In this document: one piece after another, positions 2,922 through 41,592 of the stretch
How the letters are laid out: every line of letters begins with the position of its first letter
Numbering within the stretch: position 1 is the stretch's first letter
Assembly: GCA_964537265.1 (NCBI GenBank)
Contig: CAZHZE010000002.1
Span: 21,395-85,394, forward strand
Source of the DNA: an uncultured Gammaproteobacteria bacterium
Lineage (GTDB): Bacteria > Patescibacteriota > Patescibacteriia > Patescibacteriales > GWC2-42-12
DNA: 64,000 bases
Direction of reading: 5' to 3'
The notes under the pieces: generated by a model
Database searches by the model: none
The model's input: only the letters and a program-made list of their open reading frames with translations
What the model was told of the DNA's origin: nothing
Translations under genes and position numbers: made by a program

Positions 2922-2995
2922 TTTTTAATGCTCAAGGAGGTTTAATTTATAAATATTTTTGTCAGCTTGTAATATAGCGGGCAGATTTTATCAAA

Positions 2996-4939
2996 GTGAA
3001 CTCATTAAGAGATAAAATAATACAATTTTTTAGTAAAATTAAAAATTTTATTTTTAATTTAAGTTTTTCTTGGCAAATTTTAAAGAATATTTTTAATCGC
3101 GATCACAAACAAACCGAGCTAGATAAAAAACTTGTTTTTTCTTTAGCTAAATCAAGGTGGCCAAGCTTAAAACAATTAAAGTATATAAAAAAATATTTAA
3201 ATCCAGCTGAGCGCATAGTAATAAGTTTTTGCTTGGTTATTATTTTTTTCAGCTCGATTTTTTTGGGTGTTAAATTTTATAAAAATCATTTGCAGATTAT
3301 CCCCGTTAATGGCGGAGATTATATTGAAGGAGTTACCGGCACCATAAAATATGTTAATCCTTTATATTCAAGCGTTAGTGATTTAAATAGCGATTTAGCT
3401 GAGTTAATTTATTCTTCATTATTTAAAAAAAATGGCAAAGATGGGTTAGCTAATGATTTAGCCGAGAGTTATGAAATAAGTAAAGATGGAAAAACCTATA
3501 TAATAAAAATTCGTTCAGACGCAATTTGGTCAGACGGCAGCCAGCTAACCATTGATGATATAATTTTTACTTTTGAAGCTATAAAAGATATCAGATATAA
3601 ATCTCCGTTAAGAGATTCTTTCGCTGGGGTAGAAATTGAAAAAATTGATGATAAGACTATAAAATTTATTTTGTCCGAACCATATGCCGCTTTTTTAAAT
3701 TTGTTAACCTTTGGAATTTTACCACAAAATCTTTGGCAACAAATTGAACCAAATTCGGCTAGTTTAGCCGAACTAAATTTAAAGCCAGTCGGCTCGGGAA
3801 AATATAAATTTAAATCATTGGTTAAAGATAAATCCGGGAATATTAAAACTTATACTTTAGTGCGTAATGAAAATTATTACAGCGATAAGCCTTTTATTGA
3901 CACCATTATTTTTAAGCTCTTTGCTAATTCCCAGGAGGCTATTTTAGCTTTAAATAATAATTTAATAAATGGCGTAAGCTATTTATTAGAACAAGATAAA
4001 AGCCAGGTGGCCTCACAAGATTCTTTAAACTTCTATAATTTAAATTATTCTAAAATTTCAGCAATATTTTTAAATACTAAGTCTAATACGGCTTTGGCTG
4101 ATAAAAAAATTCGTCAAGCCTTAGCTTATGCAATTGATAAACATAGTTTAATTGATGAAGTTTTAGGAGGAAATGCCCGTATTATAGATAGCCCAATTTT
4201 ACCGGATAGTTTTGCTTATTATAAAGATATTAAAAAGTATGATTATAATGTAGCTACTTCCAGCCGCTTATTAAATGAAGCTGGCTGGAAAATAGTTGAG
4301 CTGACTTCCGCAGACCTAGAACAAGCGAATAAGGATTTGTCCTCTAAAGATGAAGCTATTAAAAAACAGGCTGAAGCTAAAATTAAAATGGGCGTTGGCA
4401 AATGGCTTTCAAAAGATAAAAATTATTTAGCCATAACTTTAACTACTGTTGATAATCCAGAATATAGCAAGGTGGCTGAGATAGTCGCTAGATTTTGGAA
4501 AAATATTAATATAAAAACAGAAATTAATTTAGTTGCTCCTAACCAAATTCAAAATAATATTATAAAGTCAAGAAATTTTGACGCTTTGATTTACGGGGAA
4601 ATAACCGGTGCTGACCCAGACCCTTATGTTTTTTGGCATTCTTCACAAATTGGACAATCTGGTTTAAATATAGCTGATTATGGCAATAAAGAAGTTGACA
4701 AGTTGTTAGAAGACGGGCGTTTAAATATAGATATAAAAATTCGTCAAGAAAAATACAAAAAATTTCAAGAAATTATTGTTGATGAAGAGCCAGCTATATT
4801 TTTATACAGCCCAAACTATATTTATGTCCAATCAAAAAAAATTAAAGGTTTTAATGTTCAAAATATTATTTCACCGACTGATCGTCTCAGTAATATCGGC
4901 CAGTGGTATATAAATACCGGTAAAAAACTTATTTGGTAA
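2996..4939 (+). CDS. solute-binding protein, family 5 (OppA/DppA-like), membrane-anchored
   Basis: 647 aa (GTG start in the track). N-terminal TM segment followed by a peptide/nickel SBP-like sequence. No permease or ATPase genes are adjacent. Confidence 0.75.
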   Translation: MNSLRDKIIQFFSKIKNFIFNLSFSWQILKNIFNRDHKQTELDKKLVFSLAKSRWPSLKQLKYIKKYLNPAERIVISFCLVIIFFSSIFLGVKFYKNHLQIIPVNGGDYIEGVTGTIKYVNPLYSSVSDLNSDLAELIYSSLFKKNGKDGLANDLAESYEISKDGKTYIIKIRSDAIWSDGSQLTIDDIIFTFEAIKDIRYKSPLRDSFAGVEIEKIDDKTIKFILSEPYAAFLNLLTFGILPQNLWQQIEPNSASLAELNLKPVGSGKYKFKSLVKDKSGNIKTYTLVRNENYYSDKPFIDTIIFKLFANSQEAILALNNNLINGVSYLLEQDKSQVASQDSLNFYNLNYSKISAIFLNTKSNTALADKKIRQALAYAIDKHSLIDEVLGGNARIIDSPILPDSFAYYKDIKKYDYNVATSSRLLNEAGWKIVELTSADLEQANKDLSSKDEAIKKQAEAKIKMGVGKWLSKDKNYLAITLTTVDNPEYSKVAEIVARFWKNINIKTEINLVAPNQIQNNIIKSRNFDALIYGEITGADPDPYVFWHSSQIGQSGLNIADYGNKEVDKLLEDGRLNIDIKIRQEKYKKFQEIIVDEEPAIFLYSPNYIYVQSKKIKGFNVQNIISPTDRLSNIGQWYINTGKKLIW

Positions 4940-5109: not shown

Positions 5110-6912
5110 ATGATAACAAAATATAAACCAAGAAATAGAAGGCATCAGATGCCTGTTGCTAAAACTAGTGCGAATTTAACGCATAAAAGTTTTGAGCGCC
5201 CAGTAGTCAAAACAAGCGCTACTGCTGTAATAGAAAATAAATTAAAAGTTATAGTTTTAGGCGGGCTTGAAGAAGTCGGTCGCAATATGACTGTGCTTGA
5301 ATATGATGGAGAAATAATAATTATTGATATGGGTATACAGTTTCCAGAAGAAGATATGCCTGGCATCGATTATATTATTCCTAATATCAATTATTTAGAG
5401 AATAAAACTAAAATGATTAAAGGCATAATTATTACCCATGGCCATATGGATCATATTGGAGCTATTCCTCATTTAATGTCTAGGCTTGGTAACCCGCCAA
5501 TGTTTATGGGCAAGTTAACCGCCGGCATAGTTAGAAAAAGAGCAGAAGAGTTTAATAAATGCCCTAAATTAAATATTTCAGAAATAAATGAAACTTCAAA
5601 ATTGCAGTTAGGAAAATTTTTTAGAGTTGAAACTTTAAGAGTTAATCATTCTATACCTGATTGTTTTGCCGTTATTGTTCATACTCCCCTAGGAGCAATT
5701 ATTCATACCGGTGATTTTAAAATAGATTATTCTCCAGTTAATGATAAGCCGGCTGATTTAAATCGCATTGCTCAAATCGGCGGGCAAGGCGTATTGCTTT
5801 TAATGTCTGATTCCACTGATTCTACTCATCCCGGTTATCAAATCTCCGAATCTTCCATCGGAGATGAAATGAGTAAAATTTTTGAAAAGTTAGAAGGCAG
5901 AATTATTATTGGCACTTTTGCTTCTCAATTAAGCCGTGTGCAGAAACTTTTTGATTTAGCGGAAAAATTTGGTCGTAGAATAAATTTACAGGGCCGTACT
6001 ATGAATGACAATGTAGAAATCGCTCACCAAATTGGTTATCTTAAATTCAATCCTAAAATTTTAGTTGAAGATCGAGAATTAGATCGTTTGCCTGATAATA
6101 AAATTATTATTTTGGGTACCGGCGCGCAAGGCGAAAATAATGCCTTCTTAAGCAGAGTAGTTAATAATGAACATCGCAGCATAAATTTAAAGCCGGGTGA
6201 TACCGTTATTTTTTCTTCATCAGTAATTCCCGGGAATGAACGCAGTATTCAAACTTTAATGGATATGATGGTTAGACAAGGAGCTAAAGTTATAAATTAC
6301 GAAATGATGGATGTCCATGCTGGTGGTCACGCCAAACAAGAAGATTTAAAATTAATGATGCGTTTAATTAAACCAGAATATTTTATGCCAATTGAAGGCA
6401 ACCATTACATGTTGCGCGCGCAGGCTGAATTGGCCGAACAGGTTGGTACGCCAAAAAATAAAATATTTGTGGCTGATAATGGGCAAATTGTAGAATTTCA
6501 CAAAATTTCTAGCGGAGAAGTTATTGGCAAACTTACTAAAGAAAAAGTTTTAACTGATTATGTTATGGTTGATGGTTTGGGCGTAGGTGATGTTTCTAAC
6601 ATTGTTTTACGCGATCGTCGAGTTATGGCTGAAGATGGCATGATTGTTGTTATTGCCACTATTGATGCTAAAACAGGCGATACGATTGGCAATCCAGATA
6701 TTATTTCCCGAGGTTTTGTATATATGAAAGAAAACAAAGAATTAATACAAAAGACTAGAATGAAAGTTAAGAAGATAGTAAAAGATCATAATCCGCGCAC
6801 GCCAGCTGACGACGATTATATTAAAAATAAAATCAGAAATGATGTTGGGCAATTTCTTTTTAGCCAGACTAAACGTCGTCCGATGGTTTTACCGGTGGTT
6901 ATAAAAGTTTAA
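5110..6912 (+). CDS. rnj: ribonuclease J (metallo-beta-lactamase / beta-CASP)
   Basis: 600 aa. HGHMDHIGA motif, beta-CASP region and RNase J C-terminal domain. Confidence 0.9.
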   Translation: MITKYKPRNRRHQMPVAKTSANLTHKSFERPVVKTSATAVIENKLKVIVLGGLEEVGRNMTVLEYDGEIIIIDMGIQFPEEDMPGIDYIIPNINYLENKTKMIKGIIITHGHMDHIGAIPHLMSRLGNPPMFMGKLTAGIVRKRAEEFNKCPKLNISEINETSKLQLGKFFRVETLRVNHSIPDCFAVIVHTPLGAIIHTGDFKIDYSPVNDKPADLNRIAQIGGQGVLLLMSDSTDSTHPGYQISESSIGDEMSKIFEKLEGRIIIGTFASQLSRVQKLFDLAEKFGRRINLQGRTMNDNVEIAHQIGYLKFNPKILVEDRELDRLPDNKIIILGTGAQGENNAFLSRVVNNEHRSINLKPGDTVIFSSSVIPGNERSIQTLMDMMVRQGAKVINYEMMDVHAGGHAKQEDLKLMMRLIKPEYFMPIEGNHYMLRAQAELAEQVGTPKNKIFVADNGQIVEFHKISSGEVIGKLTKEKVLTDYVMVDGLGVGDVSNIVLRDRRVMAEDGMIVVIATIDAKTGDTIGNPDIISRGFVYMKENKELIQKTRMKVKKIVKDHNPRTPADDDYIKNKIRNDVGQFLFSQTKRRPMVLPVVIKV

Positions 6913-39051: not shown

Positions 39052-39516
39052 TTATTTTTCTTTTACTTTAATGGAAAATTGCTTAGCGCTTTTTGCTTTA
39101 GGTAAAATTACAGTTAAAACGCCATTATCTAAAGACGCCTCAACTTTTTCTACCTCAACCTCTACCGGTAAAATAATAGAACGAGAAAATCCTCCCCAAT
39201 AACATTCTTTAATTAAGTAATTTTCTTCGGAGATTCTTTCTTGGATTTCTCTTCTGCCTCTGATGGTTAGCATGTCATTATTAATAGAGATATCAATATC
39301 GCCGGGTTTAACTCCGGCTATGGTTGATTTTACGATAATATTCTCCGGGCTTTGAAAAACGTCAATAGAAAGTTGACCCTCGTCATAATCGCCACCCAAC
39401 CATTCGCCGTTTGCTATATTTTCTCCTTCTAGAAGTTGTTCAACAATGTCTTTCTCTTCATTTTTTTTATTTTTTTTATCATCTAAACCGGATAATTTTT
39501 TGAAAAAATTTGCCAT
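39052..39516 (-). CDS. Hsp20/alpha-crystallin small heat-shock protein
   Basis: 154 aa. Alpha-crystallin domain (DVFQSPENIIVKS.., LDNGVLTVILPK). Confidence 0.9.
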   Translation of the reverse strand: MANFFKKLSGLDDKKNKKNEEKDIVEQLLEGENIANGEWLGGDYDEGQLSIDVFQSPENIIVKSTIAGVKPGDIDISINNDMLTIRGRREIQERISEENYLIKECYWGGFSRSIILPVEVEVEKVEASLDNGVLTVILPKAKSAKQFSIKVKEK

Positions 39517-39550
39517 ATATTTTTAAAGTTATATCAATATTATAATGTTT

Positions 39551-39579
39551 ATTATAATATTTAACAAGAGTGCATGCAA
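39551..39579 (-). promoter_or_regulatory. sigma70-type promoter (TTGCAT-17-TATAAT) for hsp20
   Basis: Minus strand: -35 at 39574-39579, -10 at 39551-39556. Confidence 0.6.
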
Positions 39580-39604
39580 ATAATTATAATTTTTATTTCT
39601 GATA

Positions 39605-39862
39605 TGAAGTCTGTCAATTCAAGTGGACAACGCAGGACTCGAAGCGCCTCTGTGCTTACCTTGGAGCCGAATTTTCAAAACAGGGTTGGCCTCCACAATA
39701 TTTATTGTCTTTTTGGTGGACCTCTCGCTCACAGGTTGGAACCGAATTATCATAGAAATGATACAGTGGCAAAAAGTAAGAGAGGAATTTGACTTTGTTT
39801 CAGGCAAAAAATCCATAAATCAAGAACTGCTTTATTATATACTGTCAAAATAAAATCGGCAA
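39605..39862 (-). ncRNA. unclassified structured RNA candidate containing a broken tRNA-Val 3'-half copy (includes its TTGCCG-17-TATAAT promoter)
   Basis: Only mutually overlapping ORFs on both strands. Shares TTGTGGAGGCCA, TTCGAGTCCTG and TTGTCCA with the tRNA-Val at 41427-41500. 5'/3' pairing CCUCUCUUAC with GUAAG(CAC)AGAGG, and GUCAAAUUC with GAAUUGAC. Confidence 0.4.
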
Positions 39863-39904
39863 GAGTCTTTGGTGTTTAATATAACATATAACAGATAAGG
39901 CTGT

Positions 39905-39944
39905 TAATAAAATAACGGGCTGTCCTATCGCGGATCAGCCCGTT
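39905..39944 (-). terminator. hairpin terminator after the 39982-40323 gene (possibly bidirectional)
   Basis: AACGGGCTG-13 nt-CAGCCCGTT with T-rich flanks on both strands. Confidence 0.65.
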
Positions 39945-39981
39945 TATCTTTACCTTAAGTGCTAAATAATTTTTGGCAATT

Positions 39982-40323
39982 TTATTTCGATAAGACTTTC
40001 ACCCAGTTTATTGTTTTTTGCTCTCTCACCAAGAATATGCCGCCATATACTCTTGGAAATAATTGTATTTTTACATGATTTCCCAATTTAAGCTCCGATA
40101 AAGTAATCTTGTCCCCGTCGCTGTTGTAGAAGCGTGATTTGTCTTCAAGCTTCAATACATAAGCAGGATCATAAGGACCATCACCTTGAAGAACTATTGC
40201 GTCTTCCCTTATGTCTACAATAGTTCCGATTCTGCTATATTTTAAATAAAAATTAAAAGAAAAAACCAAACCAATTAACACAGAAAGGACTGTATAAATA
40301 ATTCTTTTTAGTATACTTTTCAT
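39982..40323 (-). CDS. membrane-anchored hypothetical protein
   Basis: 113 aa with an N-terminal TM helix. ~43% GC in a hand-counted sample. Confidence 0.6.
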   Translation of the reverse strand: MKSILKRIIYTVLSVLIGLVFSFNFYLKYSRIGTIVDIREDAIVLQGDGPYDPAYVLKLEDKSRFYNSDGDKITLSELKLGNHVKIQLFPRVYGGIFLVREQKTINWVKVLSK

Positions 40324-40337
40324 GATATATTGATTTT

Positions 40338-41075
40338 TTATTTAATAACACAACATTGAGGTAATTTACCATTCGTCTCAAAACTATCTTCAATGGATCC
40401 CAAATCGTTCCAGTCTGATCCACACGCTGTACCATCAGCTTTAATTTGAGTAGCTTTTCCACTTTGTTGTAAACATTTTTCAAATGTAATTTTTGTTTTC
40501 GTATTTGCAGCAGAAAAAGATGTTGGCGTTGCTGCTTGCTTTAAAAAATTAACATAAGTTCCGGAACAATTTTCTCTGATTGTTTTTTCAAATATTCCTT
40601 TCGTAAAAACTTGCTGCATTAAATCATTGCTAAGCTCACAATGTATGGCAAGCCCATTAAAACCAACTGCACCTCCTGAAGCAATAATTTTCCCATCATA
40701 TATGCATTTACTATCTCTTGATCCTGCAATTGTATGTTCAACTTGAAATTTTGTATTGGCATCAAATGATGGATCGTCATAAGAAACAATTCCTTTCGTC
40801 GGAGAACAATTTGCGGCAAGATCATAAAGACATTGTTTTGTTTCTTTGCAATTTGCCACTAGGCAAGTACGATCTTCCCCACAATCAAAAACATTATTAT
40901 TCGCAGCAGCTGTATTATTTTGTTCTTTTGAATTGTTCTGAGTATTAGTTTGCTGATTTTGGGTAGAATCTTTTTGTTGAATTTGTTGATTTGCATTATC
41001 GGTCTGTTTTCCACAACCTGATAACACGACAACTCCTCCTAGTAAAATTACTAAAGTTAGAGTTTTTTTAATCAT
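40338..41075 (-). CDS. Cys-rich lipoprotein, unknown function
   Basis: 245 aa. Lipobox LSGC, Gln/Asn-rich linker, then about 11 Cys. ~45% GC in a hand-counted sample. Confidence 0.7.
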   Translation of the reverse strand: MIKKTLTLVILLGGVVVLSGCGKQTDNANQQIQQKDSTQNQQTNTQNNSKEQNNTAAANNNVFDCGEDRTCLVANCKETKQCLYDLAANCSPTKGIVSYDDPSFDANTKFQVEHTIAGSRDSKCIYDGKIIASGGAVGFNGLAIHCELSNDLMQQVFTKGIFEKTIRENCSGTYVNFLKQAATPTSFSAANTKTKITFEKCLQQSGKATQIKADGTACGSDWNDLGSIEDSFETNGKLPQCCVIK

Positions 41076-41309
41076 ATTTTTATTATTAAGTTAATTACTA
41101 TCGCATTACTTATGCATATATTATAACATGAGAGATTAATTAATACATGGCAAACAAAGTTTCAGCTCGACTTTGCGCGGATTTCAAATTATTTGATTGC
41201 CTCAAAATCCAGCCAAATTCGTTATAATGTAAATATAGGTCAAGTGTACTTCCGCAACTAAATGACCCGAAACACGCTATAATTAGAATAGAGGCAGATT
41301 CTGCGGTTA

Positions 41310-41338
41310 AAACAAAAAACACTATCTGAAAAGATAGT
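41310..41338 (-). terminator. intrinsic terminator downstream of the tRNA pair
   Basis: Minus strand: ACTATCT-TTTC-AGATAGT followed by GTTTTTTGTTTT. Confidence 0.7.
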
Positions 41339-41426
41339 ATCTTAAGTGAGTATTTCTCAAGGGGGTGTTCAAACCCTTACTTAGACCTTGGTAAAGCCAT
41401 TAGTAGGGTATTTAAACATGGATTTG

Positions 41427-41500
41427 TGGACAATACAGGACTCGAACCTGTGGCCTCCACAATGTCAATGTGGCGCTCTAACCAACTGAGCTAATTGTCC
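41427..41500 (-). tRNA. tRNA-Val (anticodon GAC)
   Basis: Reverse complement: GGACAAT..CCACA-TTGACAT-TGTGG..ACAGG-TTCGAGT-CCTGT-ATTGTCC-A. Confidence 0.9.
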
Positions 41501-41518: not shown

Positions 41519-41592
41519 TGCGCGTGGATGGACTTGAACCATCGACCCCCGCCTTATAAGGGCGGTGCTCTAACCAGCTGAGCTACACGCGC
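41519..41592 (-). tRNA. tRNA-Ile (anticodon UAU)
   Basis: Reverse complement: GCGCGTG-TA-GCTC..GAGC-A-CCGCC-CTTATAA-GGCGG-GGGTC-GATGG-TTCAAGT-CCATC-CACGCGC-A. Positions 34-36 are TAT. Confidence 0.85.

Follow-up and report, generated by a model that had tools for sequence, protein, structure and literature searches.

The window analyzed in this study comprises 64,000 nucleotides (nt) of contig CAZHZE010000002.1 (assembly GCA_964537265.1), originating from a Falkowbacteria-like member of the Patescibacteria. On its minus strand, a locus at positions 39862-39605 is located between an intact valine transfer RNA (tRNA) gene, tRNA-Val(GAC), and the gene hsp20. Based on sequence comparison, this locus probably consists of two remnants of tRNA-Val gene copies, neither of them functional, which reside at a hotspot of insertion and replacement. 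A preliminary description, made from the letters of the window, had proposed either a decayed tRNA duplicate or a tRNA-derived RNA that acquired a new function. The decayed duplicate is retained here, while no support was obtained for a structured RNA with a new function. Three points were absent from that description, namely that the insert splitting the remnant is a member of a recurrent family, that the reported direct repeat is a partial second copy of this insert and that ~1.7 kilobases (kb) of lineage-specific DNA separate the locus from the live tRNA gene.

In order to obtain a set of related loci, the VanW-domain protein encoded in the window was used as query, yielding 26 loci from metagenome-assembled genomes of Patescibacteria, mostly labelled Candidatus Falkowbacteria or Parcubacteria. 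The Hsp20 protein retrieved 80 further metagenome loci, and several more were added by exact-protein look-ups. The related loci, ~110 in number, are designated by L-numbers.

Blocks of tRNA-Val at the locus

Read on the minus strand, positions 39699-39623 contain three blocks of the neighboring tRNA-Val(GAC) in collinear order, interrupted by an insert of 43 nt. The first block, ATTGTGGAGGCCA (39699-39687), is identical to tRNA-Val positions 41463-41451 at 13/13 positions, and the sequence TTCGAGTCCTG..TTGTCCAC (39643-39623) agrees with positions 41446-41426 at 19 of 21 positions. Both tRNA-Val-like stretches keep the order of the tRNA and are located on the same strand as each other. The composite pattern TTGTGGAGGCCA-N43-TTCGAGTCCTG-NN-TTGTCCA has a single occurrence in the window and was absent from all 100 dinucleotide shuffles. 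Collinear identity on the same strand thus exceeds chance, which confirms the three tRNA-Val blocks named in the preliminary description. Partial copies of the other six tRNAs and of the transfer-messenger RNA (tmRNA) were also searched for in the window, and none were found. The sequence of the locus was reproduced exactly by independent assemblies (three sequencing runs).

The complete order on the minus strand is TGATAATTCGGTTCCAACCTGTGAGCGAGAGG (39752-39721), TCCACC plus AAAAAGACAATAAAT (39720-39700), ATTGTGGAGGCCA, the 43-nt insert and TTCGAGTCCTG-CG-TTGTCCAC. Replacement of the 5' strand of the T-stem by an insert had been described correctly, but the length given (~45 nt) has to be amended to 43 nt (39686-39644). 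Likewise, an expanded anticodon loop is present in so far as CCAC...GTGG encloses a 'loop', which measures 19 nt instead of the 18 nt reported and is in part a junction that also occurs in L041. The 5' acceptor strand is missing, as had been stated, and GACAAT within the 'loop' derives from the anticodon-loop region. GACAAU as a candidate for this acceptor strand was ruled out, since this junction is preceded by an intact tRNA-Val in L041. Furthermore, TCCACC at 39720-39715 resembles the end of an upstream copy of tRNA-Val that has been destroyed, because GTCCACC in L041 is the 3' end of an intact tRNA-Val according to ARAGORN.

Upstream of this junction, a second remnant (remnant 1) can be aligned with positions 39677-39647 of the insert over 33 columns, with a score of 31 compared to 16.4 +/- 3.2 for shuffled sequences, of which 2/500 reached this value. 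The 13-mer repeat between remnant 1 and the insert was confirmed. The direct repeat noticed earlier is therefore real and longer than claimed, extending over ~32 nt as part of a partial duplication of the insert. Duplication of a full 75-nt tandem unit was rejected, as statistical support is limited to ~32 nt and no repeat was called by Tandem Repeats Finder at this position. Remnant 1 corresponds to a second, partial copy of the insert and remnant 2 to the split 3' half of a tRNA-Val gene.

The insert represents a recurrent family

The insert belongs to a family of the form CCCYG...GGCACCGAGGMGC joined to TTCRAG, with CCCYG at its start, a T-rich middle part and GGCACCGAGGMGC at its end, which is directly connected to the T-loop sequence TTCRAG. 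It is placed between the variable loop and the T-loop and replaces four bases of the 5' strand of the T-stem. Members of the family were identified in dead tRNA-Val copies of the window, L030, L004, L041 and L059, as well as at the same tRNA position in dead tRNA-Ile copies of L031/L032, L059 and L078. Within ~0.7 Mb of related DNA, the motif was found essentially only at dead copies of tRNA-Val and tRNA-Ile. This distribution identifies the insert as an apparently recurrent, site-specific insertion rather than a result of random decay. It is not a simple intron, because the T-stem 5' strand was removed.

Conserved base pairing within the insert was searched for, and no convincing case was found. 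Pairing of the CCCYG start with a CNGAGG end was considered and discarded, since the differences between the window and L004 are not compensatory (by eye). Four viral-contig matches to the insert end plus T-loop (GCACMGAGGMGCTTCRAGYCC) were also dismissed; all of them are located in one GC-rich phage coding region and are regarded as chance matches.

Synteny and homologues of the remnant in related loci

The common gene order among the related loci is DHH-family gene, tRNA-Ile(UAU), tRNA-Val(GAC), hsp20, DUF3006 gene, VanW gene and uvrB. At least 14 loci are devoid of the remnant, examples being L033, L050, L034/L045, L052, L038, L056, L049, L042, L067, L023, L026 and L027, and the 3' end of tRNA-Val is found 44-85 nt before the hsp20 ATG in these cases. 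Here, the promoter block CTTGTTAAATATTRTAATAAAYATTATAAT, which is conserved in ~30 loci and corresponds to window positions 39572-39526, directly follows tRNA-Val. The live tRNA-Val of the window is that of the remnant-free locus L033, both being identical over 74 nt (by eye).

Homologues of the remnant were detected in four sequences only, namely L030, representing the same species, and L004, L041 and L059. The latter three feature an intact tRNA-Val and, 12-17 nt downstream of it, a homologous remnant containing the same insert, without any island in between. In L004, a homologue of window positions 39693-39623 (84.5% identity over 71 nt) begins 14 nt after the intact tRNA-Val. In L041, GTCCACC followed by AATAAGACAATAAATAT, TGTGGAGGTCA and the insert corresponds to window positions 39721-39678 with 93% identity. 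In L059, the remnant GGAGGTCA-insert-TTCGAGCCCTGTATTGTCCACC adjoins the hsp20 promoter just as the tRNA does in remnant-free genomes, its GTCCACC abutting this promoter. From the arrangements in L059 and L041 it follows that a former tRNA-Val beside hsp20 has left its 3' part there, at the ancestral position, as the remnant. The preliminary description had suggested searching relatives for the same locus. The remnant part has homologues in the four loci mentioned, whereas positions 39720-39862, comprising the proposed promoter and the 5' part, are unalignable even in the comparison with L030.

The window and L030 differ by ~0.5% overall, and their Hsp20 proteins are 99% identical. Within the remnant (39699-39623), 6 of 77 positions differ, compared to 19/1375 third-codon positions of hsp20 and the DUF3006, VanW and uvrB genes and 2/358 positions of other intergenic DNA. 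Divergence of the remnant is accordingly significantly higher, both relative to third-codon sites (Fisher p=0.0014) and relative to other intergenic DNA (p=0.0005). Upstream of 39720, both sequences are unalignable (14/22 differences). Two of the six changes in the remnant bring L030 closer to the T-arm sequence of the relatives' tRNA-Val (GAGCCCTGT), which suggests gene conversion. Hence, a lack of purifying selection coincides with patchy presence of the remnant among relatives, and remnants appear to change fast between near-identical strains.

Several observations weigh against remnants without function. The identity between the remnant and its L004 homologue is about equal to that of the functional tRNA-Val of both genomes (by eye). 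Moreover, the insert ends are conserved across species and two tRNA types. Either feature could reflect constraint instead of shared origin or repeated insertion. The raised divergence from L030 may represent a patch of recombination or gene conversion and not neutral decay, so that a lack of conservation is documented, but not a lack of use. Furthermore, a transcript may originate from the locus, integrase, transposase or homing-endonuclease genes were not found in the 1.7-kb segment of the window, and more than one order of events fits the data.

Lineage-specific DNA and variable cargo next to tRNA-Val

Between the remnant and the live tRNA-Val, ~1.7 kb of DNA are located. The segment 41426-39722 is lineage-specific, showing neither a DNA nor a protein match in the related loci, and its ORFs (open reading frames) of 60, 245 and 113 amino acids (aa) contain no Pfam domain. 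These ORFs occupy positions 39982-41322; the 245-aa product is Cys-rich and, like the 113-aa product, features an N-terminal hydrophobic segment. Public unitigs identical to the window end at 41483, which is inside tRNA-Val, and at 39879-39908, with overlaps of 30 nt. These ends are weakly consistent with graph branch points caused by structural variation among co-occurring strains.

The interval between tRNA and hsp20 harbors different cargo in relatives, such as an AbiEii toxin gene and a partner ORF (L011:4317-5646), a gene encoding a Bro-N domain (L005:3206-4066), a methyltransferase gene (L110:361-1143) and a HAD hydrolase gene (L085:1606-2229) accompanied by a GIY-YIG gene. Based on these gene contents, the tRNA-Ile/tRNA-Val/hsp20 junction is a general insertion hotspot.

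Nested tRNA genes, hairpins and GIY-YIG genes in relatives

At least 20 related loci carry additional tRNA-Ile or tRNA-Val fragments of at least 12 nt outside called genes. In L031:3380-3640, L079:2995-3290 and L101:3000-3200 (also in L032, L080 and L102), a complete new tRNA-Ile(UAU) is located inside the anticodon loop of an older tRNA-Ile, after position 35. The nested genes are flanked by inverted repeats of 11-15 nt, CCCCGTCAAATT/AATTTGACGGGG, CCCCGTTAAATT/AATTTAACGGGG and CCCTGTTAAAT/ATTTAACAGGG, which show compensatory changes between lineages. An outer tRNA-Val with three precise inserts was found in L035:3067-3360. Its D-loop contains a 23-nt hairpin, a stem-flanked insert of ~190 nt harbors a new tRNA-Val, and a palindrome of 20 nt is placed where anticodon stem and loop meet. 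After removal of all three, ARAGORN accepts the outer copy as tRNA-Val(GAC). The same outer copy carries point changes in L031, a close relative of L035, and the joined outer tRNA-Ile copies of L079 and L101 are only called as tRNA-??? with a two-base (ta) anticodon. Outer copies therefore decay.

Loci L031 and L032 encode an identical Hsp20. Compared to L031:3770-3945, a deletion in L032:1693-1767 fuses the 5' part of the new tRNA-Val to the old 3' remnant, and the acceptor stem of the resulting chimeric tRNA-Val is mismatched. The fusion is either a real recombination event or an assembly collapse. Recombination between copies would collapse nested structures and thereby explain their patchy distribution. 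Rfam analysis of 12 related loci returned tRNAs and ribosomal RNAs only, and no intron or ribozyme.

Nearly the same GC-rich palindrome (CCTGCCTGCCGGCAGGCAGG and CCTGCCTGCCGCAGGCAGG, respectively) was observed in L035:3296-3315 and L079:3060-3078, at different positions of dead tRNA genes and in distantly related genomes, which suggests a small mobile palindromic element. Another peculiarity concerns L006:5513-5770, where tandem units of ~79 nt follow tRNA-Val(GAC). These units resemble a tRNA-Val with a UAC anticodon loop; their D-arm and acceptor junction are broken, they are not called by ARAGORN, and the array is partly masked as N.

Furthermore, small ORFs encoding GIY-YIG nucleases (PF01541, E 1e-11 to 1e-19) were identified in L013:201-479, L024:~5700-5915, L085:2332-2607 and L089:~2946-3212. 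Each of them has a fragment of an old tRNA-Ile or tRNA-Val on one side and a new, intact tRNA on the other, as would be predicted for a homing cassette that brings along a replacement tRNA. A comparable system is SegB of phage T4, a free-standing GIY-YIG homing endonuclease gene residing in a tRNA gene cluster. SegB is also mentioned in PMC13096335. Resemblance of the layout to SegB-type cassettes applies to the four relatives only. In contrast, the window features neither a GIY-YIG gene nor a remnant of one: tblastn with the four GIY-YIG proteins of the relatives gave nothing below E=0.2 in the window, and a cassette of this kind is not present there.

Evaluation of alternative explanations

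Among the alternatives, an attR-type scar was considered first. According to this explanation, an island encoding a tyrosine integrase entered the 3' half of tRNA-Val, restored the gene and displaced the native half, and the 1.7 kb represent this island in a decayed state, resembling a cis-mobilizable element or tandem accretion. Fragments of tRNA genes reportedly flank genomic islands and integrative elements as att-type direct repeats (Reiter 1989; Williams 2002), and the anticodon loop and the T-loop are said to be the usual crossover sites of integrases in tRNA genes (Williams 2002), which was counted in favor of such a scar. In accordance with these features, the remnant is a partial 3' copy located downstream of the tRNA in the same orientation, it starts in the anticodon arm, its junctions coincide with the anticodon-loop and T-loop regions, and lineage-specific DNA lies in between. 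Moreover, the 3' half of tRNA-Val is repeated exactly over 45 nt in L074, ~48 nt downstream of the gene, and repeats of 21-22 nt, reaching from the T-loop to the 3' end of tRNA-Val, are present in L007 and L012.

However, an attR-type scar appears unlikely. Neither an integrase or recombinase gene nor remnants thereof were found in the window segment, and the equivalent intervals of relatives did not reveal a recombinase either. In addition, the repeat does not run contiguously from a crossover site to the tRNA 3' end but is split by the 43-nt insert, which recurs at the same position in two tRNAs, so that a single crossover is insufficient; a second, shorter remnant is found in tandem. Finally, the remnant follows the tRNA after 12-17 nt in L004, L041 and L059, where the island is lacking. 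Cis-mobilizable elements (CIME) and tandem accretion at tRNA att sites are represented by ICESt1/CIME of Streptococcus thermophilus. Successive att-like remnants, short cargo without recombination genes and reuse of the site are shared with these systems, but the repeats in the window are degenerate and interrupted, and no sign of present mobilization was found there.

A tRNA-derived small RNA gene that acquired a new function and is transcribed from its own promoter (39862-39834) is even less probable. The proposed TTGCCG-17-TATAAT promoter is indeed present as a promoter-like site with 10/12 matches; it is not distinctive, given that nine such sites were counted in the same AT-rich 900 nt compared to 3.5 +/- 2.0 expected. 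The locus is richer in guanine and cytosine than its surroundings (0.425 vs. ~0.3), as had been noticed, and three mutually overlapping ORFs are present as described, for which a Pfam search gave no match. The identity to L004 and the conservation of the insert ends in several species, addressed above, would also be compatible with a small RNA. On the other hand, the promoter and the 5' two-fifths of the proposed gene are absent from L004, L041 and L059 and unalignable with L030, the remnant is missing in many close relatives, and its divergence exceeds that of third-codon positions.

Searches for RNA families and structure, which had been proposed as checks, did not support a small RNA either. 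In the window, ARAGORN called eight tRNA or tmRNA genes, none of them at the remnant. Rfam found nothing on the remnant when the whole window was searched at the gathering threshold, and again nothing when positions 39300-40200 were searched at E<=10 with lax filters, tRNA and intron models included. Upstream of the remnant, only weak chance matches were obtained at E<=10. One sub-threshold match to group-II-D1D4-4 (39908-40008, minus strand, 19.8 bits, E=0.05) partly coincides with a terminator-like hairpin and with the end of the 113-aa ORF and is probably a chance match as well. The sequences of the flank pairings proposed earlier do exist, but the minimum free energy (MFE) structure uses other pairings, and with an MFE z-score of 0.05 the proposed 236-nt transcript is no more stable than shuffled sequence. 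When RNAalifold was applied to the three alignable homologues, no compensatory pairs were reported, several pairs were broken and the covariation term amounted to +0.79, three sequences making this a weak test. As far as these predictions go, nothing points to a conserved fold of the remnant.

It is hardly conceivable that the locus constitutes a functional interrupted or split tRNA-Val, from which inserts are removed at the RNA level in an intron-like manner. Precedence exists in the same phylum, since group I introns at position 35/36 of tRNA-Asn and tRNA-Asp hide these Patescibacteria genes from standard annotation tools (PMC13011429). Relatives resemble this situation in that tRNA-Ile inserts are found after anticodon position 35 and genes are missed by tools; furthermore, the outer tRNA-Val of L035 yields a valid tRNA-Val(GAC) upon removal of its three inserts. 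In contrast to intron-containing tRNA genes, no intron signature was detected. The remnant matches neither Intron_gpI nor any other intron family at E<=10, no such match was obtained in relatives, and the relatives' inserts are hairpins of 20-130 nt or carry a whole tRNA. In the window, essential parts of the 'exons' are missing, namely the 5' acceptor strand, the D arm and the 5' strand of the T-stem, and an intact tRNA-Val(GAC) is available 1.8 kb away. Outer copies of relatives carry disabling changes, as exemplified by the tRNA-??? (ta) calls in L079/L101.

Equally negligible is a cis-regulatory hsp20 leader, i.e., an RNA thermometer or attenuator operating via alternative pairings of CCUCUCUUAC: the locus is located upstream of hsp20 on the same strand and CCUCUCUUAC is able to pair with GUGAGCGAGAGG or GUAAGCACAGAGG, but the conserved hsp20 promoter lies downstream of the remnant, which therefore is not part of the leader, the same promoter block directly follows tRNA-Val in remnant-free relatives, so that hsp20 expression is independent of the remnant sequence, and the 5' partner region is not conserved.

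Proposed history of the locus and its significance

Returning to the pair of tRNA-Val remnants at an insertion and replacement hotspot, the related loci indicate an ancestral order of DHH gene, tRNA-Ile(UAU) and tRNA-Val(GAC), with the hsp20 promoter directly after the latter. In some lineages, an insert of ~40 nt inactivated a tRNA-Val copy beside hsp20, with an intact tRNA-Val just upstream. In the lineage of the window, the insert was partly duplicated, giving rise to remnant 1, and the live tRNA-Val is now parted from the remnants by ~1.7 kb of unrelated DNA, in which three small ORFs are found. The remnants are altered quickly even among near-identical strains. The insert may correspond to one end of a small mobile element targeting tRNA loops or to a miniature version derived from it. 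Similarity of each remnant to the tRNA-Val of its own genome would be due to common descent and gene conversion between the copies. The 1.7-kb DNA presumably entered by site-specific or flank-homology recombination, at a hotspot receiving differing cargo. As to the mechanism that created the remnants, insertion of a small mobile sequence targeting loops, the action of a nuclease cassette, recombination of the integrase type and exchange by flank homology are all conceivable.

The locus shares features with ordinary tRNA pseudogenes, such as loss of the cloverleaf, absence of a call by tRNA detectors and fast change. Unlike these, a specific insert recurs at the same site of two tRNA species in several genomes. 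It is tentatively proposed that the insert family, the GC-rich palindromic hairpins of D and anticodon loops and the stem-flanked cassettes that put a new tRNA-Ile or tRNA-Val into the old gene, some of them with a GIY-YIG gene, might represent undescribed small mobile elements of Falkowbacteria-like Patescibacteria, which would target the loops of tRNA-Ile and tRNA-Val and bring along a replacement tRNA. The hairpins and cassettes are possible kin of the insert, and the window locus would be the fossil of two rounds of insertion. This proposal is more speculative than the assignment of the locus to tRNA-gene remnants and is somewhat more doubtful than probable.

The locus itself is ordinary, being a tRNA-gene remnant, and its recognition keeps a small RNA gene from being wrongly annotated in a reduced genome. 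More can be learned from its context, as essential tRNA genes seem to have been repeatedly interrupted, nested, replaced and collapsed by recombination, with cargo varying by genome. If the inserts are mobile and carry replacement tRNAs, they would constitute a compact selfish element that makes itself hard to lose. Mobile inserts would also be a source of errors in the annotation of tRNA genes in Patescibacteria.

Coordinates and further observations

Features of the locus and its surroundings are compiled in Table 1.

Table 1. Features of the tRNA-Val remnant locus and neighboring elements in the window.
Feature	Position	Strand	Supporting observation
Conserved hsp20 promoter block (CTTGTTAAATATTATAATAAACATTATAATATT), downstream of remnant	39526-39572	-	83-96% identity in ~30 related loci
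Remnant 2, 3' block: T-loop, T-stem 3' strand, acceptor 3' strand, discriminator plus one base (TTCGAGTCCTGCGTTGTCCAC)	39623-39643	-	19/21 vs. tRNA-Val 41446-41426
Insert 'insB', 43 nt, replacing T-stem 5' strand (ACCCTGTTTTGAAAATTCGGCTCCAAGGTAAGCACAGAGGCGC)	39644-39686	-	Homologous inserts at same tRNA position in relatives
Remnant 2, 5' block: anticodon-stem 3' strand, variable loop, first T-stem base (ATTGTGGAGGCCA)	39687-39699	-	13/13 vs. tRNA-Val 41463-41451
Junction, TCCACC followed by AAAAAGACAATAAAT	39700-39720	-	Window 39721-39678 vs. L041:346-389, 93% over 44 nt
Remnant 1, partial duplicate of insert (TGATAATTCGGTTCCAACCTGTGAGCGAGAGG)	39721-39752	-	Local alignment to 39677-39647
Lineage-specific DNA, ORFs of 60, 245 and 113 aa, promoter-like site 39834-39862	39753-41426	-	No match in ~110 related loci
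Intact tRNA-Val(GAC), source type of remnant blocks	41427-41500	-	ARAGORN and Rfam (74.9 bits)
Intact tRNA-Ile(UAU), syntenic partner of tRNA-Val	41519-41592	-	ARAGORN and Rfam; gene pair upstream of hsp20 in most relatives

Within the hsp20 promoter block, a 12-nt tandem repeat, TATTATAATATT (39538-39563), was observed, and the block could contain a heat-shock operator besides the -35 and -10 elements. The codon AUA is usually decoded in bacteria by a lysidine-modified tRNA with a CAU anticodon, and a UAU anticodon is uncommon. The tRNA-Ile of the window has the anticodon UAU, as do the corresponding genes of most relatives at this locus. Near the start of the window, positions 679-1068 harbor a tmRNA with an unusually long predicted tag peptide (AKNLLSKMTFSWKMPAFAPVAA), immediately followed by tRNA-Leu and tRNA-Gly.

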